A stretch of DNA of 64,000 nt from a plasmid. The notes under the pieces are model-generated. The model made no database searches, was not told where the DNA came from, and was given only the letters and a program-made list of their open reading frames with translations. The position numbers were made by a program, and so were the translations under genes. The stretch is taken from sequence record NZ_CP081674.1. One strand, written 5' to 3'. Of the stretch, positions 20,435-45,941 are shown in pieces. The first letter of the stretch is position 1; every line of letters begins with the position of its first letter.

Positions 20435-21124
20435 TTCGGTGGAGTTGGGGTGGGTGTTGGAGGTTGGTGGTGGTGTTCGTTCATACTGCGGGGCATGTCA
20501 CTTGATGCGCTTGTGGCCGAGGCCGGTCAGGTGCTCGGTGACGCGCGCAAGATGTTTGGGCCTGCGCCGGCGGCCGGCGGATGGTCGAGCACACCGGCGC
20601 TGAGCGCTGGTAAGGACAGTTTGGCCCAGGCCGGGGGAGTGCTGGCGGGGTGGGGCGGAGCGAGCGCGACGACGCATCTGTCGGCCAGCGGCGGTCGTGT
20701 GGTGGCTCTGGACAATGTGATCGGCGCTGATCGAGGAACTGCGCCGGGTTTCACGGGGGCGGCCCAGACCTCTCAGTCTGGTGGTGGCGGGATGGACGAC
20801 GTCAACGCCGACACGCGTAGGGGAGTGGCTGCGATTGCTCCGAGCACCGACACCCCGGCCGGTAAGACGCAGCTGGTCAATCATCTGCAGTCCCAGCTCG
20901 ACCGTGCCAAAGCGTTGCTCAAGGTTTCCGAGTCGCGCAACGTGATGCTGGCCAATGCGATTCGCAGCGCTGCAGGAGGCTATGGCGGCGGTATGCCGAT
21001 GGGTGGCGGTATGGGTGGCCCGATGGGCGGCGGGATGCCCATGGGTGGCGGGGGAATGGGCGGTGGTGGACTACCCGGCCTCGGCGGCGCCGGCCTGATC
21101 CCCAACCTCTCCGCCTTCACCCGC
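20435..21124 (+). repeat. copy 2 of ~690-bp perfect direct repeat
   Basis: See copy 1. Confidence 0.85.
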
Positions 21125-25933: not shown

Positions 25934-27058
25934 ATGACCCGGGCACACAAGTATCGCGTGTCCACACTCGATCGCGCCCAGCACAGCGCGCCCCGTCCCA
26001 CCCTGTCACCGTACTTCCGCGACGACCAGGTGACGCTGTACCACGGCAAGGCGCTCGACGTCGCACGCGAACTGCCCAGTGGCTCAGTGGATTGCATCGT
26101 CACCAGCCCGCCATATTTCAACCTCCGCGACTACGGTGCCGAAGGACAGTACGGGCTGGAGTCAACACCAGCGGAATACGTTGCCAACCTTCGAGACCTC
26201 TTCAGCGAGCTGCGCCGCGTCCTCACCGACGACGGCACCCTATGGCTCAACCTCGGCGACACCTACAGCACCCGTGCTGACGCTTCAGCTGGGCCAACCT
26301 CAGGACGCAGCCGACCCGACGTCATGCCCGGGCGAATCAACACCACCGGCACCATCGGCCGGAAGCAGCTCCTCGGAATCCCCTGGAGGGTGGCCTTCGC
26401 GCTCCAGGATGACGGCTGGATCCTGCGCCGAGACATCGTCTGGGAAAAGCCCTGTGCCAAACCCGAAAGTGTCACCGATCGACCGTCATCACGACACGAA
26501 TATGTCTTCCTGCTCACGAAATCACCGAACTACTGGTTCGACCTCGACGCCATCCGCGAATCTCACGCTGAGACCAGCATTAAAAGGGTAGCCGCCCACC
26601 GCTCACCAACAGGACGCGCTGCCCGTGAAGGCAAACCCTATGTCGGAGAAGGGAAGCGGGAAACGATGCGCCTCGACCAAATGAACCACCCCCGAGGTCG
26701 CAACCCCGGCGACGTCTGGTCGATCAGCACCATCCCATTCCCACACGCTCATTTCGCCGTCATGCCACCCACACTGGCCCAAAAGTGCGTCATCGCCGGA
26801 TACAAACCCGGAGGGATCGTCCTCGATCCGTGCAACGGTGCAGGAACAACCGGCCTGGCAGCCCAACGCACCGGGCGCCGATACATCGGCATTGATATCA
26901 ACGCCGACTACCTCGACCTCTCACTACGCACACGTCTGCGCGACGCCACATTGGACTTCTGCGTCGTCGACTCCGCCGCCGACATGCCCGAACCCAACGG
27001 CGATGGCCACGACACAGCCCCCACTCTCTACAGCATCGCAAGCGAAGACGCATCGTGA
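25934..27058 (+). CDS. DNA methyltransferase (N6-adenine/N4-cytosine, beta-class; ParB-MTase-like), orphan
   Basis: 'DCIVTSPPYFNLRDYG' (motif IV S/D-PPY) appears early, and the AdoMet-binding region 'VLDPCNGAGTTGLAA' (motif I) appears late, which gives beta-class order. No adjacent restriction endonuclease is recognisable. Confidence 0.75.
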   Translation: MTRAHKYRVSTLDRAQHSAPRPTLSPYFRDDQVTLYHGKALDVARELPSGSVDCIVTSPPYFNLRDYGAEGQYGLESTPAEYVANLRDLFSELRRVLTDDGTLWLNLGDTYSTRADASAGPTSGRSRPDVMPGRINTTGTIGRKQLLGIPWRVAFALQDDGWILRRDIVWEKPCAKPESVTDRPSSRHEYVFLLTKSPNYWFDLDAIRESHAETSIKRVAAHRSPTGRAAREGKPYVGEGKRETMRLDQMNHPRGRNPGDVWSISTIPFPHAHFAVMPPTLAQKCVIAGYKPGGIVLDPCNGAGTTGLAAQRTGRRYIGIDINADYLDLSLRTRLRDATLDFCVVDSAADMPEPNGDGHDTAPTLYSIASEDAS

Positions 27059-27980: not shown

Positions 27981-28790
27981 ATGAGCGCCGTCAACCCTCG
28001 CGCGGCGGCGGCCCGAGCTCGCCGTAAAGCCCTTGCCGAGCAGGGATGGCGGAACTTCTGCGCCGCGCTGGGCTACCCAGATCCCGACACCATCACCCAG
28101 GAGAGGACAATATGGCAGGAAAGCGACGCACAGGTCCGGGCCAAGATCAGCCCGATCTGTTCAGCATCCTCGACGGGGAAGGTGGCAGTGACCAGCCCGG
28201 AGATACGCCAGATCGTGGACAACATCTACAGCCAGCACCTCCAACTACCCCAGAACTGGACCGCCGGCCAGCGCGAGAAGTTCCTGGAGAACGAGGCTTC
28301 GCGGATCAGCCTGCAGATCGCGGACCTAGCAGCCCAAATGGGGGAGCAGGCCGTTCAACACTGGCAGAACCAGAACGGTCACCCGCCGGACTATCTGACC
28401 AAAGTCGGGCTGCTGAACAACGCCCGGTCGCAGGCGATGGAAACAGTGCTCAACAACGAACTCTACGAACAGATTCCCCAGACCGAGGACCCCAACGATC
28501 TCGAAGCACCGACGACCGAGACACTGGCTCGCAGCCAGGTGCCCTGGGATCAGCGCTGGACGAGCCCCCGGTATCGCAGCGAGCCCAGCGAGCAGATCGA
28601 GGACCTGGCCGCGGCGATTTGGCCGGCCCCGGATTTCTCGGCGGTGTTTCGGATCAAGGCGCAGTATCTGCTGGCGGCCCGCGCCGAGGACCAGCTTCCG
28701 CTGCCCACCCATCAGCACGACCCGCTGGCCGCGACACTGGCCGACCTGGTCTACAACGATCTGCGCCACGACGGCCTGCCAGAGCGCTAG
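27981..28790 (+). CDS. hypothetical protein (Gln/Trp-rich, natural composition) immediately upstream of methylase-helicase
   Basis: ATG at 27981 is preceded by a perfect SD AAGGAGG at 27969-27975. The composition is clearly coding, unlike the overlapping Arg/Gly/Pro frame of the giant ORF. Confidence 0.5.
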   Translation: MSAVNPRAAAARARRKALAEQGWRNFCAALGYPDPDTITQERTIWQESDAQVRAKISPICSASSTGKVAVTSPEIRQIVDNIYSQHLQLPQNWTAGQREKFLENEASRISLQIADLAAQMGEQAVQHWQNQNGHPPDYLTKVGLLNNARSQAMETVLNNELYEQIPQTEDPNDLEAPTTETLARSQVPWDQRWTSPRYRSEPSEQIEDLAAAIWPAPDFSAVFRIKAQYLLAARAEDQLPLPTHQHDPLAATLADLVYNDLRHDGLPER

Positions 28791-31700
28791 CCCAACCCTC
28801 ACTTTTCGACGAGGTCGTCGACCAACCCACCGACCCACGCACGATCGACCCCGGCGGCCACGAACTTCCGCCACCGCAACAACCGGCCGAGCCCGTCCCC
28901 ACGCCAACGGTCTCGGCCGACCCCGACCAGCCGCAGCAGGATGTCGACCAGACCGCGCCCGGGCCGACAGCCCCCACCACACCGACGGCGGCATACCGAA
29001 CCCCGACCGACTTTCCCGCCAGCACCGACACGCTAGTCCCCTCCGGAGCGAAGGCACGCGTCCGCGCCAACATCACCGCGATCGAGCTGCTCGAGAAGCT
29101 GCGCGAAGCCGACCGACCCGCAACCACCGACGAGCAGGCAGTCCTTGCCGCATGGTCGGGATGGGGAGCGGTGCCAGCAGTGTTCGACCACCGCAACGAC
29201 ACCTTCGCCGACCAACGTCAACGCCTCCACGACCTACTCACCCCCGATCAGTACCGCCAGGCCGAAGCCTCGGTACTCAACGCCCACTACACCGATCCCG
29301 CTCTGGCTCAGATCATCTGGCAAGCAGTGCGGCGTGCCGGATTCTCCGGTGGCCGGGTCCTCGAACCCGGATGCGGCAGCGGCACATTCATCAGCCACGC
29401 ACCCGAAGACGCGGTCATGGTCGGAGTCGAGAACGACGCGATCACCGCGGCGATCGCTGCCCATCTGTATCCCTCGGCCCAGATCCGACATGAAGGGTTC
29501 GAAGCCACACGCGTCCCCGAGAACAGCTTCGCCGCGGTCATCGGCAACGTCCCCTTCGGCCAGTACGTCATCGCGGACCCCAGCCACAATCCTCAACGCC
29601 TGACCGTCCATAACCACTTCATCGTGAAATCGTTGGCCCTGACCGCCCCTGGTGGATACGTCGCGGTCCTCACCAGCCGCTACACCCTCGATGCCACCAA
29701 AGACACCGCCCGCAGCGCCATCGCCGGATACGGCGACCTCATCGGAGCAGTTCGACTGCCGTCCAAGGCATTTAGCCGAGTCGCCGGAACCGACGTGGTC
29801 ACCGATCTGCTCATCTTGCGCCGCCGCGACCCGCAACAGCCCGTGCCCGATGTGGTCCCAGAGTGGGTTACCACCACCGCACCCATGCTCGACGACGAAG
29901 GCGAGCCCACCGACCTGTTCATCAACAGCTACTACGCCGCCCACCCCGGTCACGTACTGGGCAGTATGCGGATCGGTCGAGGCCTCAACGGCTCACCCAG
30001 CCTCGCCGTCGGCGGCGAAACCGGGCCCGCGCTGGCGCAGCAGCTTGACCAATGCCTGACCGAAATCATCGATGACGCCATCGACAGCAGCCGCGGCCTC
30101 ACCGCCACCGTCGGCGACCTCACCGTCGTCTCTGCCGAAACCTTCGACCCGGGCCTGATCACCGCCGCCGACCGTGGCGACGAGACGCCCCTCTACACCC
30201 TGCGCTACAACCCCGAGACCAAGAGAATCGACTACTGGTCAGGCCACGCCTGGGAGCCAAACAAGACCCCGAAGTCTCGACTGGGCGAGACCCGTGAACT
30301 GATCGCCCTCCGCGACGTCGCCACCAGCCTCATTCACTCCCAACGCGACGGCCGCCCGCAAGCCGAGCGTGACCAACTGCGCGGCCACCTCAACACGCTC
30401 TACGACAACTACGTGCGCCGGCACGGTCCGATCAACCGATTCACGTGGGTCCACCCGAAAGAGATCACCCAGGCGCGTCACGATGAAAAACTCGCCGCCA
30501 CCGAGGCCCGATGGCGGGAAAAGGAAGGACAACCCGGCGCCCCGTACCGTGGCCCAATCCCCGACGAGCTACTCGCACAATGGGACAGCGCCGCCTGGGA
30601 AGCCCCCGCTCCCTACAAGAAACGGTCCCATCTAGACGGAGGCATGCGCCACGACCCCGGGTGGGCCATCGTGTGCGCGCTGGAGGACTTCGACGAAGAC
30701 ACCGGGCTGGCCCGCAAATCCCCGATCTTCTCCACGGACCTGCTCACCCCAGCCCCCGAACGAATCCATGCTGATACGCCCGAAGATGCACTGGCGATGA
30801 GCCTGGACCGCAACCTGCGGGTCGATCTCGACTACATCGCCGAGCTGCTCGAAGTTCCCGTCGATGACGCCCGCGACCTGCTCGACGGACTGGTATATCC
30901 CAGCCTCGACGACCCCGACGAGTTGATCCCCGCTGTCACCGCCCTATCCGGCAACGTGCGTCGCAAGCACACCGAAGCTGCGCTCGCGGCTGAGCACAAC
31001 CCGGTGTATCGCCGCTATGCAGAGGTGCTGCGCGATCTGGTCCCACCCGACCGCACGGCCGACCAGATCAAGGTACGACCCGGAGCACCGTGGGTCGACG
31101 CACGTTACATCGCTCAGTTCGCCGAGGAAACCTTCGGGATAACCGATGTGATCGCCGAGCACCTCGGCGGCCGCTGGACCGTCGATGTCGCCAAGTACAA
31201 GCGCCACGGCCGGCTCATGACCGAGACCTGGGGACTGGACCGTGATCGCTGCGACGCGGTGAGTCTGCTCGAAGCCCTCTGCAACTCCCGCAGCATCGTT
31301 CTGCACACCGATGAAGGTGTGCTCGACACCCAGGCGACCTTCGCCGCACAGGCCAAGTGCGACAAGATCACCGAAGAGTTCCAAAAGTGGATCTTCAACG
31401 ACCCACAACGCACCGAGGTTCTCGTCGCCGAATACAACGAGCGATTCAACTCGTTGCGAGCGCCCAGCTACGACGGCTCCAAACTGCAGCTACCCGGATT
31501 GTCGGATCACTTCACGCCGCACTTCTACCAGCGCAACGCTGTCGCGCGCATCATCGCCGAGCCCGCCACTCTTCTCGATCACGTTGTGGGGGCCGGGAAA
31601 ACAGGCACCATGCTGATGGCTGCGATGGAGCTGCGCCGGCTCGGCTTGGTCCGTCAACCATGGATCGTGGTGCCCAACCACATCGTCGAGCAGGTCGGCC

Positions 31701-34264
31701 GGGAAGCCAACCAGTGGTACCCCGCAGCGCGGGTGCTTCTCGGGTCGGCCGCCACCACCGCAGAAGGACGTCGCCGGTTCATCGCCCAATCAGCTTCCAG
31801 CGATTGGGATCTGGTCATCATTCCGCAATCCGCGTTCACGGCGATCCGCGTGAACGCGGGTGTAGTGCGAGACTACGTAGAAGAGCAACTCGACGATCTT
31901 CGCGCGCAACTGGCCACCGCAGATTCTGACCGGACCGTCAAGCGCATCGAGCTCGCCATCAAACAGACCCAGGAGCGGCTGCAACGGCTCGTTGATCAGG
32001 CCCGCAAAGATCAAGGTCTGGGCTTTGAGAACTGCGGATGCGACTACCTGTTCATCGACGAAGCCCACATGTACAAAAACAAGGCCCGCGTCTGCAACAT
32101 CGAAGAGTTGTCCTGCCCCACGTCCAGCCAACGTGCAGAGGACCTCACCCTCAAACTGAGGATACTTCGGCAACGGCGGCGCGACGAGGCCCGCGCTGCC
32201 GGCATCCCCGAGGACAAGGTCGTCGAGCGAGTCGCCACCTTGCCAACCGGAACGCCGATCGCCAACTCACTGGGGGAGTTGTGGGTGATGCAGAGCTACC
32301 TGCGCCCCGACCTCATGCGCGACGCAGGTGTTGAAGACTTGGGCGACTGGGGCGCGGCCTTTACCACCACCGTCACGACCGTCGAAGTCAACGCCACCGG
32401 AACCAAGCTGCGGCCCGTCACCCGGGTCGGCAAGTTCACCAATCTGCCCGAACTTCTGGCATTGTCGTCGGCCTACACCGACGTCGTCACCCGCGACATG
32501 GTGCCGGTGAGATTGCCGGCCCTGCGCACCGGGCAGCGCCAAATCGTCAGCCTGCAACCCGACATCCAGGTCAGCGACTTCATCGCCGATCTGGGTTACC
32601 GAGCCGACCACCTCGACGCCCGGCAGGCTCACCGCGACAACACCCTCAAGATCGCCAACGATGGCCGAAATGTGTCGCTCGATCCACGGCTGGCGCACCT
32701 TCCCAAGCCCGCCTACAGCCGCGCCGAAGCCGTGTCCGACCGCATCATGGGCGTCCACACCCGGCTGGCCGACCGCGTCTACCACGACATGGACACCGGA
32801 GAACCACTCGACCGCACCGGCCCGTTGCAGATCGTGTTCTGCGACCGTGGCACACCGTCTAAAGACCCCAACCAGTTCACCATCTACCAGGCCATCAAAG
32901 ACGAACTCATCGCACGCGGGATGCCGGCCTCAGCGATCAGATTCGTTCATGAAGCACGCAAACCCAGCGAACTGAAAGCGCTTTTCGCCCAATGCAATCG
33001 CGGCGAGGTGTCGGTCTTGATAGGAAGCACTGAGAAGATGGGCACGGGCACCAACGTGCAAGCACGAGCTGCGGCTCTGCACCACGTCGACGTTCCCTGG
33101 CGGCCATGCGACCTCGAACAACGCGAGGGGCGAATCATCCGCCAAGGCAACCAGAACGAAGAAGTGGACATCTTCAACTACGTCACCGAGGGAACTTACG
33201 ACACCGTGATGTGGCAGAAAGTACAAGCCAAATCGCTGTTCATCGAACAGATGCGCCGCAAAGAGGTCGTCGACCTCGAAATCGAAGACCTCAGCGGCGG
33301 CGACATCGGCTCGGCTGCCGCCGAGACCAAGGCGATCGCCACCGGCGACCCCCGCTACATCCGGCAGGTCGAACTCGACGACGAGGTGCGCCGCCTTAGC
33401 TCCCTCGAACGCGCACATCACGATTCAGTACGGCAACGCGACTGGAGAGTCAGAGAACTGGAACGCTCAATTCCCCATCAGCACAACCAGATCGAAAAGC
33501 TCGACCCACACGTCGCCGACGTCGAACAGCATATCGCCAACGAAACGCCACTCAAGATTGCGATCGACGGGAAGACGTACAGCGACCGAGCCAACCAGGC
33601 CGGCGCCGTGTCGTCAGCGTGCCGCCAGGCCTACCACCGGCTCAAAGAGGGCGCCTCCCGCTTCGAGCCGATCGGCATCACGATCAACGGTGTGGAGGTG
33701 CTTGGTTCGCGCTCGCTCATGCACGACATGCTGATCCTGCGGCTGGCGGTACCCTCACGCACGTCCGACATCAAGAGCCACGATCTATTGGACACTGCCT
33801 CATCGGGGGAGACCGGCGCCGCCAAGGCACGCGGACTGGTCAAGCGTATCGAGAACCTCTACAGCGGACTGCCCGCCCATCGCGCCAACCTGCAGGCCAA
33901 CCTCGACAGCGACCAACGCCAACTCGATGATCTGCAGGCCAACCCACCCGCACCGTTCGAACACGGCGACCAACTCGACGCCAAAAAAGCCGAACTCGCG
34001 GCACTCACACTGGAGCTACGACTGGCAGCCGACAGCCCCGAAGGCAGGGAGAAGGCCCGCGCCGCCGACGAACGCATGATGATGCGCGGCCGCAAACCGG
34101 GATGGAGCCTGCTGCTGAACCCGACGCCGGCGGTACTGGAGGAAACCGGCTGCCCCACCGCCGATGTGCTGCGCCGCAAGATTGCCGTACGTGAGCGAAT
34201 GGCGATCGCTGACCACCATCGTGATCTCGACGACGGCACACCCGGCCACGAACACGAGCTCTAA
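28790..34264 (+). CDS. giant N6-adenine DNA methyltransferase :: SNF2/DEAD-box helicase fusion (phage P1 DarB-like / conjugative anti-restriction type); start codon unresolved
   Basis: MTase motif I 'VLEPGCGSGTF' and motif IV 'NVPFG'. Helicase motif I 'VVGAGKTGT', motif II 'LFIDEAHMYKN', motif VI 'QREGRIIRQGN'. The conserved N-terminal 'NITAIELLEKLREADRPATTDEQAVLAAWSGWGA' resembles the N-terminus I recall for proteins of this class. The ORF is open from 28046, but its 5' 745 bp overlap the 27981..28790 gene in a compositionally non-coding frame. Confidence 0.8.
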   Translation, partial: AQPSLFDEVVDQPTDPRTIDPGGHELPPPQQPAEPVPTPTVSADPDQPQQDVDQTAPGPTAPTTPTAAYRTPTDFPASTDTLVPSGAKARVRANITAIELLEKLREADRPATTDEQAVLAAWSGWGAVPAVFDHRNDTFADQRQRLHDLLTPDQYRQAEASVLNAHYTDPALAQIIWQAVRRAGFSGGRVLEPGCGSGTFISHAPEDAVMVGVENDAITAAIAAHLYPSAQIRHEGFEATRVPENSFAAVIGNVPFGQYVIADPSHNPQRLTVHNHFIVKSLALTAPGGYVAVLTSRYTLDATKDTARSAIAGYGDLIGAVRLPSKAFSRVAGTDVVTDLLILRRRDPQQPVPDVVPEWVTTTAPMLDDEGEPTDLFINSYYAAHPGHVLGSMRIGRGLNGSPSLAVGGETGPALAQQLDQCLTEIIDDAIDSSRGLTATVGDLTVVSAETFDPGLITAADRGDETPLYTLRYNPETKRIDYWSGHAWEPNKTPKSRLGETRELIALRDVATSLIHSQRDGRPQAERDQLRGHLNTLYDNYVRRHGPINRFTWVHPKEITQARHDEKLAATEARWREKEGQPGAPYRGPIPDELLAQWDSAAWEAPAPYKKRSHLDGGMRHDPGWAIVCALEDFDEDTGLARKSPIFSTDLLTPAPERIHADTPEDALAMSLDRNLRVDLDYIAELLEVPVDDARDLLDGLVYPSLDDPDELIPAVTALSGNVRRKHTEAALAAEHNPVYRRYAEVLRDLVPPDRTADQIKVRPGAPWVDARYIAQFAEETFGITDVIAEHLGGRWTVDVAKYKRHGRLMTETWGLDRDRCDAVSLLEALCNSRSIVLHTDEGVLDTQATFAAQAKCDKITEEFQKWIFNDPQRTEVLVAEYNERFNSLRAPSYDGSKLQLPGLSDHFTPHFYQRNAVARIIAEPATLLDHVVGAGKTGTMLMAAMELRRLGLVRQPWIVVPNHIVEQVGREANQWYPAARVLLGSAATTAEGRRRFIAQSASSDWDLVIIPQSAFTAIRVNAGVVRDYVEEQLDDLRAQLATADSDRTVKRIELAIKQTQERLQRLVDQARKDQGLGFENCGCDYLFIDEAHMYKNKARVCNIEELSCPTSSQRAEDLTLKLRILRQRRRDEARAAGIPEDKVVERVATLPTGTPIANSLGELWVMQSYLRPDLMRDAGVEDLGDWGAAFTTTVTTVEVNATGTKLRPVTRVGKFTNLPELLALSSAYTDVVTRDMVPVRLPALRTGQRQIVSLQPDIQVSDFIADLGYRADHLDARQAHRDNTLKIANDGRNVSLDPRLAHLPKPAYSRAEAVSDRIMGVHTRLADRVYHDMDTGEPLDRTGPLQIVFCDRGTPSKDPNQFTIYQAIKDELIARGMPASAIRFVHEARKPSELKALFAQCNRGEVSVLIGSTEKMGTGTNVQARAAALHHVDVPWRPCDLEQREGRIIRQGNQNEEVDIFNYVTEGTYDTVMWQKVQAKSLFIEQMRRKEVVDLEIEDLSGGDIGSAAAETKAIATGDPRYIRQVELDDEVRRLSSLERAHHDSVRQRDWRVRELERSIPHQHNQIEKLDPHVADVEQHIANETPLKIAIDGKTYSDRANQAGAVSSACRQAYHRLKEGASRFEPIGITINGVEVLGSRSLMHDMLILRLAVPSRTSDIKSHDLLDTASSGETGAAKARGLVKRIENLYSGLPAHRANLQANLDSDQRQLDDLQANPPAPFEHGDQLDAKKAELAALTLELRLAADSPEGREKARAADERMMMRGRKPGWSLLLNPTPAVLEETGCPTADVLRRKIAVRERMAIADHHRDLDDGTPGHEHEL

Positions 34265-34527
34265 CCACAGGATGCCAATGCGGCGCTACTTGTAGCGCCG
34301 CGGCACCAGCACCGCCTACCTTCTATCGCATGCACCCCCACGTCGGGCACCGCGCCGCAGACCGCGACCAACGCGGAGCTCGGGTAGGGGAGGAGGGCCA
34401 CCTGGCTACCGTGACGCTGCTGGCCGATGTGCGGCACCGTCGCGCCCGAACGCGTCACCCTCAGCGCACTCCGCGCCGAGGGCCAAATGTGCTCTCAGCG
34501 TGGCTGTTACAGTTCCTGGCGTCCACG

Positions 34528-34938
34528 ATGGACCACGGATGCATCGTGCGCACCAGCATGGCATCACTATCAACGTGGGCTGAACTCATGAGCGCGGTAG
34601 ACGAGTCCGACGACATCGCCGACCGCGACGGTGGCCCCCGAATTGACGTAACTCCCGTCGAGAGCGCCCAGTTCGCGGCGATCGAGCACACCCACCAGTT
34701 ACTGACTGACCTGAATGCCCGTCCCCGCCTCGATATCGAAGTCGCGTGCAACACCGACAGCCTTACCCTGACGCTGCGCGGCATCCTTGCTGACCCGGTG
34801 ATGACGCCGCACATCGCCGACTCCATCACCGGCACGCTGCAGGCCAATGCCGGCCAACACCACTGGTATCTCGACGCGACCGACTCGGGAAGCCTGCGCT
34901 GGGAACTCGCTGCCGCCTACAGCGCGATGCTCCCGTAG
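34528..34938 (+). CDS. hypothetical acidic protein (start uncertain)
   Basis: Weak; the first 65 codons of the ORF are Arg-rich and probably non-coding. Confidence 0.25.
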   Translation: MDHGCIVRTSMASLSTWAELMSAVDESDDIADRDGGPRIDVTPVESAQFAAIEHTHQLLTDLNARPRLDIEVACNTDSLTLTLRGILADPVMTPHIADSITGTLQANAGQHHWYLDATDSGSLRWELAAAYSAMLP

Positions 34939-35648
34939 CCGGCGGTCGCCGCGCCCATGACGGCCGCGGCCTGCGCCGCCGCCGCTTGCGCCTGCTCGAT
35001 CACATCGCGTGCCTCAGATGCCTTGGCGTCCAAGAAACTGGCCAACTGTTGACGGCCCGCTGGGGTGTCCAGAGACGGTTGCAAGGCCGCCATACCCGCT
35101 TCAACATCAGCCTGGATAGTGCGCAGGCGCTCCTGGGCGGTTCGAGCGAACTGCCCAGCATCCCGCATCCCCCTGCCTAACTGCTTGTCCAGTTCGCCTC
35201 GATGGCGCGCCGTCTGCACCAGCGCAGCGTCGGCAGCCTTCGCCTCATCAGCGGCGTTGCCCGACCACCCCATGGTATGCGTCTGCCACGGAGGCGACTG
35301 GGGTTCCCGCGCACTACCGGGCGGCATCCAGATCCCCGGTGCGATCTCCGTCCAATGCAAGCCCGGTCCGAGGGCTTCGGGGTCCTGCACGACCGGCATC
35401 GGATGTGGAGCGTCCCCGGTGCCGTGAAGGTTGTCCAGCGTGCTGCGGGGCATCGATCCGCCACCCGAGGGCGGAGCTACCGACTGCGGTGGGGGAGGCC
35501 GATACGGTTCGGCGGGTGGCTGTAAGCCCCCGTTGTCCGGCCCATCTGGTAGCAACGGGGCAGGCTGGCCCGGCCCCGACTGCCGAACACCGGTCAACGT
35601 GGCCAACGTCGCCGTTAGGTCCTGAGCCAAGCGATCCAGAACGCTCAC
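34917..35648 (-). CDS. Pro-rich protein with C-terminal 'LDTPAGRQQLASFL' domain (paralog of domain in 8671..10293)
   Basis: Shared motif block; a Pro/Gly-rich N-terminal half. Confidence 0.5.
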   Translation of the reverse strand: MSVLDRLAQDLTATLATLTGVRQSGPGQPAPLLPDGPDNGGLQPPAEPYRPPPPQSVAPPSGGGSMPRSTLDNLHGTGDAPHPMPVVQDPEALGPGLHWTEIAPGIWMPPGSAREPQSPPWQTHTMGWSGNAADEAKAADAALVQTARHRGELDKQLGRGMRDAGQFARTAQERLRTIQADVEAGMAALQPSLDTPAGRQQLASFLDAKASEARDVIEQAQAAAAQAAAVMGAATAGYGSIAL

Positions 35649-35818
35649 AACTCAACGATAACGGCACGCGGCCGCGCCGCCGAGACCGTTTCACCATCCC
35701 GGGCCAGGCGCCGTAGACGACGTTCCCGAACGCACACCACCTGCAAATGCTCAACAGGCTGGTATCGCCGCCAGTACATTGACGATTCACCGCAACGCAG
35801 CACCCAGAAGGAGTCCCC

Positions 35819-36514
35819 GTGTCGCTGAAAGAAGACCTGGAGAAATATGTTGCGGAAACCCACAAGAACCAGTGGAAAACCCGCGACGGAACCCAGGTCC
35901 CAGACACCGACGACCTATCGCTGTCCAACGATGCCGTGAAACTCGAAGCCACCGTGCTATATGCCGACCTCGGCGGATCGACCCAGATGGTGAAGAACTA
36001 CGACGACTGGTTCGCGGCCGAAATCTACAAGAACTACCTTTACTGCGCCGCCCGGATCATCCGATACCAAGGCGGTGTCATCACGGCCTACGACGGGGAC
36101 CGCATCATGGCCGTCTTCATCGGGGATTCCAAGAACACGAACGCGGCCAAATGTGGCCTCAGAATCAACTACGCGGTTATCGAAATACTCCGGCCGGCCA
36201 TCAAGAAGCAATACCCCAACAGCACCTTCAACCTCAAACAACGGGTCGGGATCGACACCTCAGACTTGTTCATAGCTCGCACCGGAATCAGGGGGAGCAA
36301 CGATCTCGTATGGGTCGGGAATGCCGCCAACAATGCCGCCAAGATGGCCGCGCTGTCCACGGACTACCCGACGTACATCAGCGCGGACGTCTACTCCATG
36401 CTCAACGACTCATCCAAGTACGGTGGCGACCCCAAGCAGAACATGTGGACCCCTCTCGGCTCACGTGCACTCGGATACGACATCTACGGATCGACCTATT
36501 GGTGGAGCTTCTGA
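35819..36514 (+). CDS. stand-alone class III nucleotidyl (adenylyl/guanylyl-type) cyclase catalytic domain
   Basis: Motifs 'VLYADLGGSTQM' (F-x-D-x-x-G-F-T equivalent), 'GDRIMAVF' and 'GIDTSDLFIARTGIRGSNDLVWVGNAANNAAKMAAL' (G…D..G..VN.AAR). GTG start with AAGGAG 8 nt upstream. GC is visibly lower than flanks (AAR/GAR-rich codons). Confidence 0.65.
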   Translation: MSLKEDLEKYVAETHKNQWKTRDGTQVPDTDDLSLSNDAVKLEATVLYADLGGSTQMVKNYDDWFAAEIYKNYLYCAARIIRYQGGVITAYDGDRIMAVFIGDSKNTNAAKCGLRINYAVIEILRPAIKKQYPNSTFNLKQRVGIDTSDLFIARTGIRGSNDLVWVGNAANNAAKMAALSTDYPTYISADVYSMLNDSSKYGGDPKQNMWTPLGSRALGYDIYGSTYWWSF

Positions 36515-36607
36515 CGCCGGCTGAGCAGCGGTCCGGTGCCTTGGTTGGAACGCTGATGCATGAAACGGCGATTGATCGTGCTGGTATGACCCGAATGCCC
36601 ATCCGGG

Positions 36608-37207
36608 TCAGAGGGCACTGTCGCCCGATCGGTTGGGCGGATTGATCCGGTATTGCAGCCAGTTGGCGGCGTTGTCGATGGCCGATCCGTAGCGTGCGTC
36701 GACAGTAGTAAGTCTCTCGGCGATCAAGGCCGGGTCTACGAGCCGTTCTTGGAGGAGGGCGTCGACAAAGTCGCGGTCTTTTGGCCGGAATGCGCAGAGC
36801 TTGGCGACACACAGATCCTCTTTGTCCAGGCACCAGCCGATGTATTGGGGCTGTCCAGACGGCGCGGCGGTGTTGGCGTTTTGGACCTTGACCAGTCGTT
36901 CGCGCCAGCGGTCGGGGAGTGCCGCGGTGGTGAGGTCAACGCCGTCGATGCTGAACCCGTGGAGCTGCTCGAACGGCGAGAGCTCACCGGCAACGCCAAC
37001 GATCAGATCGGCCAGTTCCATGGTGACGTTGTTGTCATCGGTGATGGGCAGTATGTCGACTTTCATTGAGCGAGTGGCCAGTTCTGGCAGTTCGTATTCC
37101 GGGTAGGTGCCGAGGATCGCCTGGGACCCGATCACAATGACCTCGTCCTGATTGGTGATCTGGCAGGCGGTGCGAATCGCGTGCTCCAACTGATCGCGAC
37201 GCATCAA
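36608..37207 (-). CDS. minimal nucleotidyltransferase-fold protein (MNT/AbiEii-like)
   Basis: 'DEVIVIGSQAILGTYPEYELPELATRSMKVDILPITDD' matches the G-S-x-A…(S/D)-x-D polymerase-beta-type NTase signature. It has a 4-nt overlap with the upstream HTH gene. Confidence 0.5.
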   Translation of the reverse strand: MMRRDQLEHAIRTACQITNQDEVIVIGSQAILGTYPEYELPELATRSMKVDILPITDDNNVTMELADLIVGVAGELSPFEQLHGFSIDGVDLTTAALPDRWRERLVKVQNANTAAPSGQPQYIGWCLDKEDLCVAKLCAFRPKDRDFVDALLQERLVDPALIAERLTTVDARYGSAIDNAANWLQYRINPPNRSGDSAL

Positions 37208-37719
37208 ACGACCTTCCGGAGGGCTTCACGACGTTCCTCGTCGGGAAGAAGACCGCCCATGGGTGTGACCTCACGCATCTCGATGTCCTGGCGGTCGAGG
37301 CCAGTCAGTGCGCGACGCAATGCGGGCACATCGTTGGTTTCAACGATGCGTTCCCAGCGGTCAAGGTTGGCCAGGTGAGGCTGCCCGCGGACCCCGGTTC
37401 GCAGCCGTGTGATATTCGCAAGAATCGTTGGCCCCCAATTGGTTAGCGACACTGGGGTCAGGTGTGTGGCGAGCTGCCGGTGCACTGCCCAGGAGCGATG
37501 CTCCGAGCGCGTGAGGTTGGGGTTGACGGCTCGGCGGGTGATTTCGAGGCGGTAGCCCATGCAGGCGAGGAGGCGAGCCAGTTGGTCATCGCTGCAGTCG
37601 ATCTTGCCGGCCAGGATCTGGCTGATGCTGGGTTGACGGACTCCGCTGAGCCGGGCGAGTTCGGATTGGGTCATGCCTGTATCCCTCATGACCTCGTCGA
37701 GGACCTCACGCGCTCGCAT
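37204..37719 (-). CDS. XRE-family HTH protein (partner of NTase)
   Basis: 'MTQSELARLSGVRQPSISQILAGK' is an HTH_3 motif. The start is set at MRAREVL (ATG complement 37717-37719). A 7-bp inverted repeat lies just upstream. Confidence 0.55.
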   Translation of the reverse strand: MRAREVLDEVMRDTGMTQSELARLSGVRQPSISQILAGKIDCSDDQLARLLACMGYRLEITRRAVNPNLTRSEHRSWAVHRQLATHLTPVSLTNWGPTILANITRLRTGVRGQPHLANLDRWERIVETNDVPALRRALTGLDRQDIEMREVTPMGGLLPDEERREALRKVV

Positions 37720-37726
37720 ACTGCGA

Positions 37727-37745
37727 TTATAGCACCCCATGCTAT
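37727..37745. promoter_or_regulatory. inverted repeat TATAGCA-N5-TGCTATA (putative autoregulatory operator of HTH-NTase operon)
   Basis: Perfect 7-bp arms, unusually AT-rich for this DNA, located 8-25 bp upstream of the HTH gene start. Confidence 0.45.
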
Positions 37746-38038
37746 ATGCCAGGGCGCTGTGGGGCTCGTCCGATTCAAGTGGATGAGCACCAACATATGG
37801 TGATCCGGCGGAACTGGCCGGTTCAGGATTGCTCGACCAGGATCGTGCTCGACGCGTTTCGGGAATGACCATCCGGACGACGTAATGCGCTGTATCGCTA
37901 GCCATTCGAGGCGTAGTCGATCATCCTCAACGACCCGATTTGTCGCGGGGCAAGGGCGTACGTAAAACGTCACTTGACGGTTTCGTCGATCTGGGCCTGG
38001 TTCGACATGCGCGCTCACGCTGTGAATACTTCGAACAT

Positions 38039-38284
38039 ATGAGCGAGTGGAAGCTGAGGCATACCCGCCGGGGCTGGGTGGAGCCCGGGCCGCCGGAATA
38101 TTGCCGCAACGGCCATCCGCTGAGGCCCGGTGCCTATCAGGTCGGAAGCCAGGCGTGCCAGTGCGGGACTATCCATCGGGTATTCCACTGCGACGTATGC
38201 GCCGATCGGATGTACCGCAATCGGTGTCCGATCCGGGAAATGGTGAGAGTGGACCGGCGCTGTGAACTGGGAACTCTCATCTAG
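38039..38284 (+). CDS. small Cys/His-rich protein (zinc-ribbon-like), hypothetical
   Basis: 'YCRNGHPLRPG…CQCGTIHRVFHCDVCADRMYRNRCP'. Weak. Confidence 0.3.
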   Translation: MSEWKLRHTRRGWVEPGPPEYCRNGHPLRPGAYQVGSQACQCGTIHRVFHCDVCADRMYRNRCPIREMVRVDRRCELGTLI

Positions 38285-38847
38285 TCGCGGAAGACTCGAC
38301 GCCATTTTTCCGTGAAGACATGAGAGTGCCGGAGATAATCCGGAGAAACATGAGAGTGTCGGACACCCGAGCGCAGCCGCTACGGACCGCAGTGGTGGCG
38401 GCCTCGTTGAGCGCAGCCATCGTGCGAACGGCCCATCCCCGCCCGATTGGTGCCCATCTCGTCGACGATCTCTAGTTCCGGACTCAATCCACGCCTGGTG
38501 TTGTTGCGCGGGCCGTTAGGGCTACACGACGCTGAACTCTAGATGAGTTATCTGTAGGTCAGAGCGGGGGTGTACTCCACTGTCGCTGACGGTGGATTCT
38601 TGGTTGGTGCGGTCCGGGGGGGTACAGGCTTATCTGTAGGCATGTACTTGATGGTGTTTCAGTGATCGAACTTGGGCTGATCGTTTTCGCGCGTTGCCTC
38701 GGCGGGTGCGGCAGTAACAGACGGTCCACGGAGTGCAGGGAACGATCGAAGGGTGGGGGCGGCCATCGTCTTGTCGTTGGCCTGCCGGGCATCGCGAACT
38801 ACCGAAACTTCGGTGCTGATGATCGACCCGGCGTCCCCGCTGCACGC

Positions 38848-39964: not shown

Positions 39965-40445
39965 ATAGAGTTTTCGTATCGTCGTGCCTATGAGGCGAGC
40001 ACCGCGCGGTGAACAAAGTCCTCGATCAGATCTGCGATCATCGTCGCGCCGCGAGTGTTCTGATGGATGAAATCGGCGGTGAGGACGAGGCCTCGGCTCC
40101 GGCCGATGCTGTCATAGGAACGACGCAGAATCCGGTGCTGGAGGACTGAGGTGTACCGATATCTCTAGGTGGTGCAAAGGTATCCACGACATACACGACG
40201 ACTGCTGGTTCGGAGCGCAAGCGCCTGTCGTGAACGAGTTATCTACAGCTGATCCGTGACGACGGCGGCCTGCGTCATTGGTGCGCGCCAGCGAGGATGC
40301 GAAGTACTCGCCGTTGTCGACGCCGACTGGGTCAACGATCACATTCGACGGCTCCACGAGGGCGAGGCAATGTAACCAGAGCGATCAGGTCTGGACGTTC
40401 TCCGAGGCCGCCGCGCTGCTCGGCGTGGTCAGGCCGAGCTCGTGA

Positions 40446-40652
40446 GCACGTTGCCAGGCTGCGGCTAGATTGGCTGCCCGGCTGTCGGCGGACACCTCGC
40501 ACAGGAACTGGCTGCATTCTTTCTTGTTGATCTGCCACCGTAGTTCGGCGTATAGACGCAGGTAGCGGCGTCGGAGGATCACTCGCCCGAGGGCACCGCA
40601 GTCCTGGATGACGCGACAAGCTCGACCACCTGCGGCCTGGTCTTGTTCGAGT
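40446..40652 (+). repeat. copy 1 of ~200-bp degenerate direct repeat (~80% identity to 54184..54395)
   Basis: Visible alignment: …CACGTTGC…GGCTAG…CTGCCCGGCTGTCGG…CCTCGCACA…CTCTTTCTTGT(T/C)GATCT…CGTAGTTCGGCG…CGCCCGAGGGCA(C/T)CGCAGTCCTG(G/C)ATGACGCGAC…CTGCGG(C/T)CTGGTCTT…. Confidence 0.7.
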
Positions 40653-40744
40653 GCTTGGGATTGTTTGGTCCAGTAGGGGTGGACCCGCCACTGGGTGTCG
40701 CGGACGGGAGTCTTGTTCCAGCCCACGTTCGAACCTCGGCGTCT

Positions 40745-41842
40745 TTACACCATGGTGAGGTGTCGGGTGACGGGTTGATCGCTGGCGGTGCGAAATAGGT
40801 CAGCGCGTTGTGTGCTTGTGAGCAGGGTGATTTCGTCGAGTTCGGCGTTGGTGTATCCGGCCGCCAGGAGTTGTTCGAGCACTGAGCTGGTGAGTTTGGG
40901 TTGTTCGGCGGCGACGCCGGCCCGGTTCCCGTACATGCGGCCGGTCTCGTTGAGTAGCCGGAACATGGATCGGTACTGATAGTCGGAGAGGATGCCGCGT
41001 TCGCGGGCACGCATGACCAGTGACGACACGCTCACACCCCAGGTCAGGCGCAGCTCGTCGAGTTCGTGGACGGTGCGAATGGAGACCCGGTCCAGGTCGA
41101 ACGCGATGTCATCGATGGGCGCCAGGAATTCGGCGGCGAAGGCGGTGGCTCGGCGTTCGGTCTCTGTTGGGCTGACCAGGGTCATCGCGTCCATCACGAG
41201 GTGGCCGAGTTCGTGGGCGAGGGTCATCCGCATGCGGTCGGGAGGCAGGGCTGCGTTGACGTACACCAGATGCGGATGGTGCTGGTTTGCCCGCAGGGTT
41301 ACGGCGTCGATCTCGCGGTCGGCGAAGTCTTCGAGGATAACGAAAACTCCTGCGGCTTCCAGTAATTCGGCCATGGAACGGATCGGGCCGGCCACCCGCC
41401 AGAGGCGCCGCAGTACCTGCGCGGCGGTGATTTCGCCGTGCTCGGCGGCGTAGTCAGCGGGGTCGAGTTCGGGGAGCGCGAGCAGAGGTTCGATGTCCGC
41501 ACGCGCTTCGATGCGCCCGAGCCGCATCGCGATGAGGTTCGCTCGCGCCCACACGCGGTCACGTTTCCACTCCGCGGTGCTGGCATTGGCGCGGAAGTGG
41601 GTGCCTTCGGCCGGCGACCGGGTGAACGGGACGCACAACGCCTCGGGTGGGCACTGCAGGACTCGCGCGTAATCGAGCAGGGCTTTCCCGGCCAGAGGCA
41701 GGACACCGGATTCGACCTTGCTTACGTGTGACGCCGATACACCGACCTGGTCGGCCAACTTCTTCTTCGACCATCCGCAGGCGAGTCTGGTCAGCTGCAC
41801 CATCACGTTGTTCGCCTCAGCGTAGGGCTCCGGTGCCGTCAC
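40745..41842 (-). CDS. HTH-XRE :: ImmA/IrrE-family zinc metallopeptidase fusion regulator
   Basis: N-terminal HTH 'WSKKKLADQVGVSASHVSKVESG'; the HEXXH motif 'LAHELGHLVMD' lies in the C-terminal domain. Confidence 0.7.
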   Translation of the reverse strand: MTAPEPYAEANNVMVQLTRLACGWSKKKLADQVGVSASHVSKVESGVLPLAGKALLDYARVLQCPPEALCVPFTRSPAEGTHFRANASTAEWKRDRVWARANLIAMRLGRIEARADIEPLLALPELDPADYAAEHGEITAAQVLRRLWRVAGPIRSMAELLEAAGVFVILEDFADREIDAVTLRANQHHPHLVYVNAALPPDRMRMTLAHELGHLVMDAMTLVSPTETERRATAFAAEFLAPIDDIAFDLDRVSIRTVHELDELRLTWGVSVSSLVMRARERGILSDYQYRSMFRLLNETGRMYGNRAGVAAEQPKLTSSVLEQLLAAGYTNAELDEITLLTSTQRADLFRTASDQPVTRHLTMV

Positions 41843-42839: not shown

Positions 42840-43948
42840 GGGCGGCGCCGGTGACCGTGCACGGGCAACCGTCGTGGACGGTGGTCGACGATCATGGGTT
42901 GCCGATCGCAGAGGTCGAGCAGTTCCTGCACTGGTTGCGGGCGGTGGGACGCTCACAGAACACCGTCCGGTCCTATGCACGGCATCTGAGCTTGTTCTAC
43001 CGGTGGCTCTCGGCACGCGGAATCGCTTGGGATGCCGTCGTCTTCGACGGGTTGTGCGACTTTGTCGGGGCGCTGTCAGTGGGATTGCCGCCGCTGCAAA
43101 CCTGGCGTAACGGCCGATCACCAGCAACGGTGAAAGCAGTCAGCGCGGGCATCCGAGAGTTCTACGAGTTCCACCGGGTCGAAGGCCGGGGACCGCTCGA
43201 CTTGGTGCTGACCCGCAACCCGTCGAGGCTGCCGCGCCGATCGCACAGCTTCCTCGCACACGTCGAGCGGCGCCGCCCCAGCGAGGTGTCACGCTTGACG
43301 AGACCGGGCAAGGCTGCAGCGGAGACGGTGCAGGTGATCGACTTCGAGACCGACTTCACGCGGCTACTGGAGTCAGCGTCCACTGACCGGGACAGGCTGC
43401 TGCTCTCTGCCCTGTATGACCTGGGGCTGCGGGTGGGGCAAGCGTTGGGGCTGCGCCACGGTGACCTGGACCCGATGCGCCGACGAGTGCGGGTCTGCCG
43501 CCGGGAAGACAACCAGAACGGGGCCTTGTCCAAGCAGCGGGCGCAGTTCACCGTGGAGGCACCGCGGCGCTTTTTCGACCTGTACGCCGCATACCTGCTC
43601 GGCGAACTCGCCGATGTGGACAGCGATTACGTGTTCGTGAACCTGTCCCGGCGCCCGCGGGGTGGTCCGTTGTCGTACTCGAACGCCTACCAGCTGGTGG
43701 AGCGCATCGGCACCTCCGCCGGCGTCGACGACCTGCATCCCCACATGCTGCGTCACACCCACGCCACGGCGCTGGCGCGGGCCGGATGGACGGCCGCCGA
43801 GATCGCCGCCCGACTCGGCCAATCGCACGCCGCCAGCGCCGACGTGTACATCCACCTTGCCGGCGATGATCTGGCCGAGCGGCTGCGCCGTACCGAGCAT
43901 CTGGTGTGGCGGGCACCGCAGAACAGGGCTGGCAATGACACGCGGTGA
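42836..43948 (+). CDS. tyrosine recombinase (TnpA-like, ~370 aa)
   Basis: SAM-like N-domain 'VEQFLHWLRAVGRSQNTVRSYARHLSLFYRWL'. The catalytic region is 'LRHGDL…HPHMLRHTHATALARAG…DVYIHL' (R…H-x-x-R…Y). Confidence 0.75.
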   Translation: MRAAPVTVHGQPSWTVVDDHGLPIAEVEQFLHWLRAVGRSQNTVRSYARHLSLFYRWLSARGIAWDAVVFDGLCDFVGALSVGLPPLQTWRNGRSPATVKAVSAGIREFYEFHRVEGRGPLDLVLTRNPSRLPRRSHSFLAHVERRRPSEVSRLTRPGKAAAETVQVIDFETDFTRLLESASTDRDRLLLSALYDLGLRVGQALGLRHGDLDPMRRRVRVCRREDNQNGALSKQRAQFTVEAPRRFFDLYAAYLLGELADVDSDYVFVNLSRRPRGGPLSYSNAYQLVERIGTSAGVDDLHPHMLRHTHATALARAGWTAAEIAARLGQSHAASADVYIHLAGDDLAERLRRTEHLVWRAPQNRAGNDTR

Positions 43949-45941
43949 GTCCCGGACCGAATCCCGCGGCGTGCGCTCCCATCCGACACTGCGGGTCCCC
44001 GACGGCCCATGGTGCCAGCCGACCTGGCAGGTGGTCGAGGTGGCAGGGGATCGCCGCAGGCAGGCCGTCGACCCATGCGCGGTCGACGGCTGCGACGGCC
44101 CCCAATACTGGCTGGGCGGCCCCCGCAGCAACTCCGCCGCCACGTCAGGACTGTGCTACGCGCACTACTTCCAATGGTTCCGCGCCGGCCAGCCGGCCGA
44201 CTTCACGGCCTGGGCCCAGACCGGGTCGACACCGGTAGGGCCGCCACGCGGCCGCACTTGCACCCAAGTAGTCGACTTCCGTCGGTTCCCGCCGACGGCT
44301 GCCGACGAGGTCCGGTTCGTCGTGGCCACCAAGGTCGGGAGAGGCGACTGGACGCCCAACGCCAGCCTCCGCCGCGTCCTCATGGTGCTCGTCGATGCGG
44401 CCGACGGCCGGGTCACGGATTCGCTGACCGAACGGCCCGTGCACGATTGGCTTCTGCTCTGCCGACAGCACTGGCCGCATGCCAGCTCGTTCGACACGCT
44501 GTGCGCACCGTACATCCGGAGCTTCTTCCGCCTGCTCGACGGCGCCACCAACCCCGACGCGTGGACCAGCGATCATTGGCACTGGCGCGATCAATTCGAG
44601 TTCGTCCTCGACGCCACCCAATCGGGATCCACGCACACCGCCGTCGACTGGTCATCGGTACCGGTGCCCTGGCTTAAGGTAGCCGTCAAAAAGCTTGCAC
44701 GACAACAGCTCACCACCGCCACCCTGTCCTGGGGAACCCTCACCCAATGGGTGCGCGCCACCCGCCAGCTGGCCCGATTCCTCACCACCGACGGCACGGT
44801 TCCCGATCCACCCTCGGTGACCCGTTCGCTGTTCCTTGACTACCTGGCCTGGACCCGCCGTAGCGACACCGACGCGGACGCCCGGTTGGCCAACACCGGC
44901 GCATACCTGCTGGAGTCGTTGCACGAGACCGGGCTCGTCTGCGACCTGGGCTCGGCGATGTTTCTGCGCCGCGGCGAGAACGTCCACCGCAAGACTCGCA
45001 ACCCTCGCCCGTTCCCGCCGGACGTCGTCGAGCGCATCGACACCCTGATCGTCGACAACCCCGAAACCGACCCGACACTGCGGGCGATGATTGCCACGAC
45101 GCGATGGGCGGGCTGCCGAATCTCCGAACTGGTCGCCCTCCCGCTCGACTGCCTGCACCACTGCGACGGGGGCTACTGGATCGAGTACTGGATGACCAAA
45201 ACCAACGCATGGCGCCGGTTTCCCATCCCAGACACCTTGGCCACCGTCATCTTGGCGCAGCAGACCCGCGTTCGAGACACCTACGGCCCCGAGGCCACGC
45301 ACCTGTTCCCCGGGGCGCGATCGAGCGCCGCCGTCGGACGCACACAGCCCTGGTCCACCAGCGGTCTGCGGCACCGTCTCTCAGTCCTTTTTCGCGAACA
45401 TGGAATCATCTCGTCGGCGATCACCGGTGAGCCGATCTCCGGAGGGGACGTCCACCGATTCCGGCACACCGTCGGGATGACCCTGCTCAACAACGGATGG
45501 ACCCAACAGGAAGTGCGCGACTTCCTCGGGCATCAGAGCGACACCATGACCTCGACGTACGCTCGGATAACCGACGACACGCTGGCCCGCAAGGCACGCG
45601 AATTCTGGGACAACAAGCCCGAGAACCGGTCTGGGGGCGACGCGGGTGTTGAGCGGCTCCGCGCACGATTCGCCGCGGCCCTGCCCAACGGGTTCTGCAC
45701 GCTGCCGTCGGCGCAACGCTGCGAGTTTCGGCCCAACCCCTGCCTGGACTGCTCCTTCCACGACCCGGGCGGCCGGGTCTTCCTCGGCGCTCATATCGTT
45801 CACCGAGACCAACTGCAGCGCCTCACCGACGATGCTCGTGAACGCGGTGACACCGAAGCGGTCGAGCTGAACACGACCATGCTCGCCAAAGTCACCAAGC
45901 TGATCGCCGAACTCGACCCCGACAGCCCGGAACGCCCGTGA
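43935..45941 (+). CDS. tyrosine recombinase (TnpB-like, ~668 aa)
   Basis: C-terminal catalytic region 'HRFRHTVGMTLLNNGW…GHQSDTMTSTYARI'; long N-terminal extension; ATG 43935 overlaps the upstream stop. Confidence 0.75.
   Translation: MTRGESRTESRGVRSHPTLRVPDGPWCQPTWQVVEVAGDRRRQAVDPCAVDGCDGPQYWLGGPRSNSAATSGLCYAHYFQWFRAGQPADFTAWAQTGSTPVGPPRGRTCTQVVDFRRFPPTAADEVRFVVATKVGRGDWTPNASLRRVLMVLVDAADGRVTDSLTERPVHDWLLLCRQHWPHASSFDTLCAPYIRSFFRLLDGATNPDAWTSDHWHWRDQFEFVLDATQSGSTHTAVDWSSVPVPWLKVAVKKLARQQLTTATLSWGTLTQWVRATRQLARFLTTDGTVPDPPSVTRSLFLDYLAWTRRSDTDADARLANTGAYLLESLHETGLVCDLGSAMFLRRGENVHRKTRNPRPFPPDVVERIDTLIVDNPETDPTLRAMIATTRWAGCRISELVALPLDCLHHCDGGYWIEYWMTKTNAWRRFPIPDTLATVILAQQTRVRDTYGPEATHLFPGARSSAAVGRTQPWSTSGLRHRLSVLFREHGIISSAITGEPISGGDVHRFRHTVGMTLLNNGWTQQEVRDFLGHQSDTMTSTYARITDDTLARKAREFWDNKPENRSGGDAGVERLRARFAAALPNGFCTLPSAQRCEFRPNPCLDCSFHDPGGRVFLGAHIVHRDQLQRLTDDARERGDTEAVELNTTMLAKVTKLIAELDPDSPERP

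Follow-up and report, generated by a model that had tools for sequence, protein, structure and literature searches.

An orphan PycC-family cyclase, probably maintained by selection without its effector, on a mycobacterial mobile element

The stretch of DNA analysed here, 64,000 nucleotides (nt) of the plasmid sequence record NZ_CP081674.1 (hereafter the window, meaning the whole 64-kb stretch), carries a gene for a small stand-alone nucleotidyl cyclase which, by sequence and predicted fold, is an ordinary member of the well-described PycC pyrimidine cyclase family. What is unusual is its setting: this is a known kind of enzyme that has no effector beside it and is selectively maintained. The reading that we favour, with moderate confidence, is that it is a genuine PycC cyclase that has been orphaned but is active and kept by selection, its cyclic uridine monophosphate (cUMP) signal being read in trans. 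The features on which this reading turns are the following.

35819..36514, plus strand: coding sequence of the PycC-family cyclase (clade B / 'Pycsar-1'), 231 amino acids (aa), GTG start, predicted uridylate cyclase (cUMP synthase), WP_066904296.1
35807..35813, plus strand: Shine-Dalgarno sequence GAAGGAG, 5 nt before the GTG start, read from the sequence
35709..35818, plus strand: conserved 110-bp leader (presumed promoter and 5' untranslated region), which accompanies the cyclase in every mosaic variant

The PycC model of PADLOC (PDLC00766) matches the protein end to end (E=5e-100, 332 bits, positions 1-230 of 232), whereas the generic Pfam domain Guanylate_cyc (PF00211) is recognized weakly, over residues 43-198, with 26.9 bits for a cut-off of 21.9. 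Among solved structures, the best sequence match is 7R65 (7r65_A; E=1.6e-64, residues 2-230 against 2-228, 52-57% identity), which is BcPycC, the clade B cUMP synthase of Burkholderia cepacia LK29 (PMC11224242; PDB title). An AlphaFold2 model of the cyclase was built on 29 homologues and compared with solved structures using Foldseek. The model has a predicted local distance difference test score (pLDDT) of 93.9, and its top match is again 7R65, with a template-modelling score (TM-score) of 0.93 and a root-mean-square deviation (rmsd) of 1.6 A, followed by 8JSZ, the uridylate cyclase of Anabaena. Ordinary adenylyl and guanylyl cyclases reach TM-scores of 0.53-0.67 at 15-23% identity, the best of the non-PycC structures being CyaB (20% identity, TM-score 0.67). 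An N-terminal alpha-helix extension is a hallmark of PycC cyclases (PMC11224242), and the model has such a helix at residues 3-16. An earlier note on this DNA, made from the letters alone, had guessed at a Pycsar-like cyclase, and the profile, structural and residue matches all bear out that guess.

The specificity residues are those of a uridylate cyclase. In the alignment, the metal-binding aspartates D50 and D94 correspond to D52 and D96 in BcPycC, and Y48, D92 and R95 align to Y50, D94 and R97, the residues with which BcPycC recognizes uridine triphosphate (UTP) (PMC11224242). Both the metal-binding Asp and the substrate-specifying region that the earlier note had read in the sequence are thus present, and the alignment that it had proposed as a check on specificity returns uridylate-cyclase residues and not those of the ordinary adenylyl-cyclase type. 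Its reading of the transition-state motif holds in part: the motif is V-G-N-A-A-N-N-A-A-K at residues 166-175, in which Asn171 is kept but the canonical Arg is Lys175, as it is in BcPycC. Y48, D50, D92, D94, R95, N171 and K175 are invariant in the 29 homologues (63-95% identity). Because both metal aspartates and all three UTP-selecting residues are conserved, cUMP is the predicted product of the cyclase. Placement in clade B, or 'Pycsar-1', follows PMC11224242 and bioRxiv 10.64898/2026.08.12.744502. The family comprises 7210 proteins at E<=1e-10, and the best 120 of these 7210 homologues are 205-283 aa long, none with a sensor domain; the single-domain architecture of the window protein, described beforehand as a catalytic domain standing alone, is therefore that of its relatives.

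The likeness to BcPycC is close. The two proteins (231 and 229 aa) are collinear from residue 2 to the C-terminus and share the metal aspartates, the Y/D/R triad, the Asn...Lys motif and the N-terminal helix. However, BcPycC has its effector encoded next to it and its synthesis of cUMP has been demonstrated, whereas the window cyclase has no effector within 64 kb, resides on a mycobacterial element and is only predicted to make cUMP. Canonical mycobacterial class III adenylyl cyclases (such as the catalytic domain of Rv1625c, and MA1120) have the catalytic fold and the two-metal chemistry in common with it, but they are 17-18% identical to it, with TM-scores of 0.53-0.64, and mycobacterial adenylyl cyclases usually possess sensor or membrane domains and Lys/Asp purine-recognition residues.

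The usual partner of this cyclase clade is PycTM, a protein with three transmembrane segments (3-TM) and without a canonical cyclic nucleotide monophosphate (cNMP)-binding domain. Cyclase loci were compared across 19 genomic loci plus several metagenomic and assembly contigs (numbered L001 onward), using a PycTM profile that was built from 12 fetched loci and applied also to loci outside the profile; L022 and L023, with broken and truncated cyclase copies, were set aside from the PycTM count. In all 23 of the 23 loci outside the lineage of the window cyclase, PycTM (1e-16 to 1e-82) is adjacent to the cyclase or within ~1 kb of it. In the closest relatives, L026 (86% aa identity) and L027 (84%), a convergent PycTM gene lies directly 3' of the cyclase and ends 34-56 nt past the equivalent of the cyclase stop. 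PycTM is upstream and co-directional in L009, L015, L019-L021, L024 and L028-L030, and downstream in L004/L008. A three-gene set of PycTM, a second cyclase (243-317 aa, of the PADLOC PDLC02369 type) and the 231-aa cyclase is found in L010-L014, L017, L018, L025 and L004/L008, and both Pycsar-1 loci with several cyclases and the 3-TM effector of the pJV1-spdB3 type have been described previously (bioRxiv 10.64898/2026.08.12.744502). As a separate observation, the 231-aa cyclase of these three-gene actinobacterial loci is often convergent to the other two genes. Relatives sit in defence islands, with BREX PglZ/BrxC in L027 and an Eco57I-type restriction-modification system in L028/L029. Overall, the actinobacterial PycC-PycTM loci (Pfam PF18967), from Mycobacterium sp. 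GA-0227b, Nocardioides, Corynebacterium, Brachybacterium, Nocardiopsis and others, encode cyclases of ~231 aa that are 64-86% identical to the window cyclase; unlike the window lineage, which has neither, they always have PycTM and many have a second cyclase.

In the window, this arrangement is broken, as none of the known effectors is encoded anywhere in the 64 kb. The PycTM profile found nothing in a six-frame translation of the window (best E=0.96), nor in the sibling contigs L001-L003, L006 and L007, and the sole match of a second-cyclase profile to the six frames of the window is the cyclase itself. A PycTM remnant or a second cyclase within the window was considered and rejected, since these custom hidden Markov models came back empty. 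Likewise, Pfam and PADLOC searches of 67 called window genes returned no cNMP_binding, TIR, PycTM, PycTIR or 'Effector' model, and PADLOC at E<=0.01 gave no PycTM, PycTIR or Effector match among 58 window genes. The earlier note had seen no effector in cis, and this stands for the whole window. The effector it had sought was a cNMP-binding one; none is there, but the proper target was PycTM, and that is absent as well.

The cyclase gene coincides exactly with the open reading frame (ORF) at 35819-36514 on the plus strand, 231 aa, from which the earlier note had set out. NCBI names the product 'adenylate/guanylate cyclase domain-containing protein' and labels it multi-species in Mycolicibacterium. 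The DNA was traced to Mycolicibacterium houstonense DSM 44676, contig NZ_JACKVJ010000015.1. The start codon is backed by homologues, which have the same first residue and a consensus MxLKxDL, and the Shine-Dalgarno sequence, which the earlier note had called strong, is unchanged across five aligned alleles and contexts. The 110-bp leader at 35709-35818 presumably acts as promoter; a sigma-70 consensus scan around the cyclase gave no promoter match, and terminator and Rfam scans around it found nothing.

The gene had been called lower in GC and atypical in codon usage. The first is correct, as its overall GC content is 0.569, compared with 0.631 for the whole window and 0.64-0.69 for genes of the upstream flank. 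The second holds only in part. GC content at third codon positions (GC3) is 0.789, equal to or above that of the flank genes (0.67-0.76), with values of 0.50 and 0.41 at first and second positions (GC1, GC2), and codons mostly end in C (AAC 13 and AAT 2; TAC 14 and TAT 3; ATC 13 and ATT 0). Lys, Asn, Tyr and Ile together make up 27% of residues, and GC is low because the protein is rich in these four, not because codon usage is foreign. Recent horizontal transfer, as might be read from the low GC, was rejected on the host-like GC3 of 0.79. The nearest relatives outside the lineage have a GC3 of 0.54-0.56 at a locus GC of 0.60-0.65. The GC3 of the window cyclase is fully ameliorated to the host, and therefore points to long residence.

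The orphan cyclase occurs as three alleles, A (window and L001), B (L103-L107) and C (L006), which share 93-95% protein identity and ~90% DNA identity and form a clade apart from the PycTM-linked relatives (<=85% aa identity, ~74% at the nucleotide level). Pairwise synonymous divergence (dS) among them is 0.40-0.46, and the ratio of nonsynonymous to synonymous divergence (dN/dS, or omega) is 0.05-0.10. The catalytic and specificity residues are retained in all three, and the 20 variable positions are clustered at residues 60-63, 83-84, 103-108, 134-138 and 188-196. Disrupted copies number zero among the 12 loci carrying an orphan allele. The comparison of these alleles and of their surroundings involves four further features.

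36515, no strand: homology breakpoint, 1 nt past the cyclase stop, beyond which L006 is unrelated (blastn and alignment)
35950..36700, no strand: divergence island, 82-91% identity to L104/L106, with 97-100% on both sides (sliding identity profiles)
36608..37207, minus strand: DUF6036 nucleotidyltransferase gene, separated by 93 nt from the cyclase, with which it is convergent; Pfam PF19502 (E=2.9e-11), no PADLOC match
37204..37905, minus strand: gene for an Xre-type helix-turn-helix (HTH) protein; Pfam HTH_37 and HTH_3, longest ORF 233 aa

L006 is 89% identical in nucleotides to the window from 29822, in a helicase gene, to 36515; the homology of L105/L107 begins only at 35709, 110 bp before the start codon, with a MerR gene replacing DUF4226 leftward; and the window departs from all other elements at 38218. 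These mosaic breakpoints (35709, 36515 and 38218) all spare the cyclase, and the cyclase with its leader is the only segment common to every mosaic variant, the region to its right being a hotspot of cargo swapping. A discrete 2.5-kb cassette of cyclase, nucleotidyltransferase and HTH genes (35709-38218) was considered and rejected, as the break at 38218 is specific to the window and the other elements share a longer block on the right. The divergence island runs from within the cyclase, whose 3' two-thirds it covers, across the spacer into the 3' end of the DUF6036 gene, and dS is 0.41 for the cyclase compared with 0.12 for DUF6036 and 0.05 for the HTH gene. This island and the contrast in dS suggest that cyclase alleles have been swapped by recombination as a unit. 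In L103, from Mycobacteroides abscessus (GCA_030514605.1), an IS21-family insertion element (transposase plus IstB) lies at the equivalent of 35658-35662, between DUF4226 and the cyclase leader. The insertion interrupts neither the cyclase nor its 110-bp leader, and the homologies on its two sides overlap by 5 bp, which is consistent with a target-site duplication. The most economical history is that alleles A, B and C descend from an ancestor that lost the effector once, and that the cyclase has since persisted for long under purifying selection.

Because the cyclase and its leader are present in every variant, the catalytic residues are intact and dN/dS is 0.05-0.10, the orphan cyclase is probably still active and kept by selection. 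By analogy with BcPycC, it would assemble into a homodimer, arranged head to tail, that has two active sites at the interface, in which the metal ligands would be D50 and D94 and selectivity for uracil would come from Y48, D92 and R95. Upon phage infection, the enzyme would use two metal ions to convert UTP to 3',5'-cUMP. Where a system is complete, cUMP activates the neighbouring 3-TM PycTM, leading to membrane damage and abortive infection (PMC11224242; bioRxiv 10.64898/2026.08.12.744502). For the orphan, the signal would instead be read by a receptor encoded elsewhere, that is, by PycTM or another cUMP receptor, whether its gene lies in the genome of the host or on some co-resident element. 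The comparisons show family membership, conservation of the catalytic and specificity residues, lack of known effectors across the 64 kb and purifying selection; the cUMP product, the phage trigger and the trans receptor are what we infer. More tentatively, and with a good deal less confidence, the cyclase, selectively maintained and with allelic diversity of long standing, may be a mobile stand-alone 'sensor-transmitter' module that travels on conjugative or integrative elements between Mycolicibacterium and M. abscessus, its cUMP being read in trans, by a chromosomal or co-resident PycTM or by a novel cUMP receptor, or serving the element itself, for instance in inter-element conflict, such that Pycsar would be split between replicons and not form a self-contained operon.

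Several points weigh against an active orphan that signals in trans. The trans receptor is a hypothesis, the scans for effectors having covered the 64-kb window and the sibling contigs. PycTM protein searches (with a single sequence, then with a 13-sequence profile) gave no match named for M. houstonense or M. abscessus, but they are word-limited and their matches mostly carry no species name, so that this result is uninformative. The enzyme activity is a prediction. Since the alleles are imported, part of their divergence may stem from donor elements, whose gene content may have been different, and low omega could partly predate the loss of the effector if that loss was independent and recent in each allele lineage. 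The first alternative is that the gene is an inert relic: a complete PycC-PycTM system was once present, recombination on the 3' side removed the toxic effector, and the cyclase now hitch-hikes without function. Losing an abortive-infection effector is an easy escape from its cost, the effector is indeed absent, the homology of a sibling stops exactly at the cyclase stop codon, and the hotspot of cargo swapping is immediately to the right. However, a relic would be expected to show omega near 1 and disrupted copies, whereas none of the 12 loci is disrupted and three alleles as far apart as dS 0.40-0.46 are intact, with their key residues kept, omega at 0.05-0.10, the promoter and Shine-Dalgarno region conserved and GC3 fully ameliorated after long residence. 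We regard the relic as unlikely, although it is the most serious competitor of the active orphan.

Quite improbable is a non-canonical effector in cis, with the HTH/DUF6036 pair, or another neighbour such as DUF4226, having replaced PycTM to give a new Pycsar variant. The pair sits where PycTM sits in L026 and L027, convergent and directly downstream, and it accompanies the cyclase in alleles A and B in spite of a different upstream context (L105/L107, with MerR). However, unrelated genes take the place of the pair in allele C (L006), the synteny of L105 runs far to the right so that the trio is part of a larger shared block, and the dS values of 0.12 and 0.05 for the pair differ from that of the cyclase. 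Both proteins lack a cNMP-binding domain and any match to a PADLOC effector, and among 72 metagenomic DUF6036 loci (294 kb) PycC occurs in none, whereas the HTH partner occurs in 63. On these grounds, HTH/DUF6036 was rejected as the effector. DUF4226, the divergent gene upstream, belongs to the element backbone: it has a second window copy, where there is no cyclase, and it does not appear in the tables of genes for PycC loci beyond the element family. Both DUF4226 and a 149-202-aa ORF at 34330-34938 were rejected as partners because they are backbone genes. Least credible of all is a housekeeping adenylyl or guanylyl cyclase that makes cyclic adenosine or guanosine monophosphate (cAMP, cGMP) and takes no part in phage defence. 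The NCBI name would fit such an enzyme, the Pfam Guanylate_cyc threshold is passed, and there is a recent description of 'Pucsar', a cGMP-producing branch related to Pycsar and a sister of Pycsar-1 (bioRxiv 10.64898/2026.08.12.744502). Nevertheless, 26.9 bits to the generic domain compare with 332 bits to PycC, CyaB is 20% identical with a TM-score of 0.67 compared with 0.93 for BcPycC, the uracil-selecting residues of BcPycC are conserved, relatives adjoin PycTM and lie in defence islands (L027, L028/L029), and the gene is on a mobile element and not in the core genome. Pucsar cyclases have the same stand-alone dimeric scaffold, and their partners are TIR or 3-TM effectors, but their pocket is guanine-compatible, whereas the window cyclase has the uracil triad and its best match is to PycC models; going by the description of that branch, it is tentatively not placed there.

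The convergent nucleotidyltransferase and HTH neighbours that the earlier note had reported were both found, as DUF6036 and the Xre-type protein, and their genes overlap by 4 nt. The real start of the HTH protein is probably the ATG at 37719, giving 171 aa, with homologues being 156-178 aa long (172 aa in L031). Because PycC occurs in 0 of the 72 DUF6036 loci and an HTH partner in 63, the pair looks like an autonomous two-gene module of a toxin-antitoxin-like or defence-like kind. Only 0.8 kb separates its nearest relative, in L031 (78% aa identity), from an adenylyl-cyclase-STAND gene, a proximity that is probably fortuitous; the product of that gene, which is unrelated, is the sole weak cyclase-like match among the 72 loci.

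Around these genes, the window encodes ParA, NikA-like, WhiB, NlpC/P60, SLT and PE/PPE/EspC proteins, two DNA methylases and a 2072-aa methylase-helicase, and on the right it contains two features that may mark the end of an element.

43662-45941: tyrosine recombinase, 759 aa, ~2.7 kb from the tRNA-Ala gene, with a DUF6262 protein within 43662-46369
48638-48709: tRNA-Ala(TGC), beyond which lie ordinary metabolic genes (hydrolases, amidase, TetR regulators)

The whole has the look of a plasmid-like element that either integrated at the tRNA-Ala gene or ends close to it, with the boundary of the integrated element probably in the recombinase/tRNA region; a second copy of the tRNA 3' end was not found in the window. 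A nucleotide search of PLSDB plasmids with 34300-38000 gave no match, and a protein search of a phage collection with the cyclase gave none either. A protein search of plasmids returned homologues on 30 plasmids, the best with ~71% identity, so that carriage of this cyclase family on plasmids is ordinary.

Other parts of the element deserve mention in their own right. The 2072-aa fusion (28046-34264, plus strand) joins an N6-adenine methylase-like part (PADLOC mad2/MTase_II) to an SNF2/DrmD-like helicase and is preceded by a separate N6_N4 DNA methylase (25934-27058, plus strand), the block being 89-99% conserved in siblings; methylase-helicase blocks of this type are common on conjugative plasmids. 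A 690-bp direct repeat with 100% identity (16374-17063 and 20435-21124) forms the 5' parts of two ORFs of ~375 aa (16389-17519 and 20450-21568), both starting VGVGGWWWCSFILRGMSLDAL, and could reflect either recent duplication or an artefact of the assembly. An HTH and an M78/ImmA-IrrE peptidase domain are combined in a 365-aa protein (40745-41842, minus strand; PADLOC RmrA, E=4e-47, capP weaker), which is followed by a 113-aa ORF without matches (40385-40726, minus strand); this RmrA-like protein may regulate a defence or toxin module. At 38309-38363, ~90 bp to the right of the 38218 breakpoint, there are two tandem 25-nt repeats (TCCGTGAAGACATGAGAGTGCCGGA and TCCGGAGAAACATGAGAGTGTCGGA).

To our knowledge, Pycsar has not been studied in mycobacteria. 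It is relevant there, as phage therapy against M. abscessus is being pursued, and a near-identical orphan allele is present in an M. abscessus isolate (L103). If the orphan cyclase is inert, it would be a clean example of an abortive-infection system disarmed by the loss of its effector. If it is active, it would provide a simple test of cyclic-pyrimidine signalling between replicons, and it would also serve as a handle for finding new cUMP receptors.

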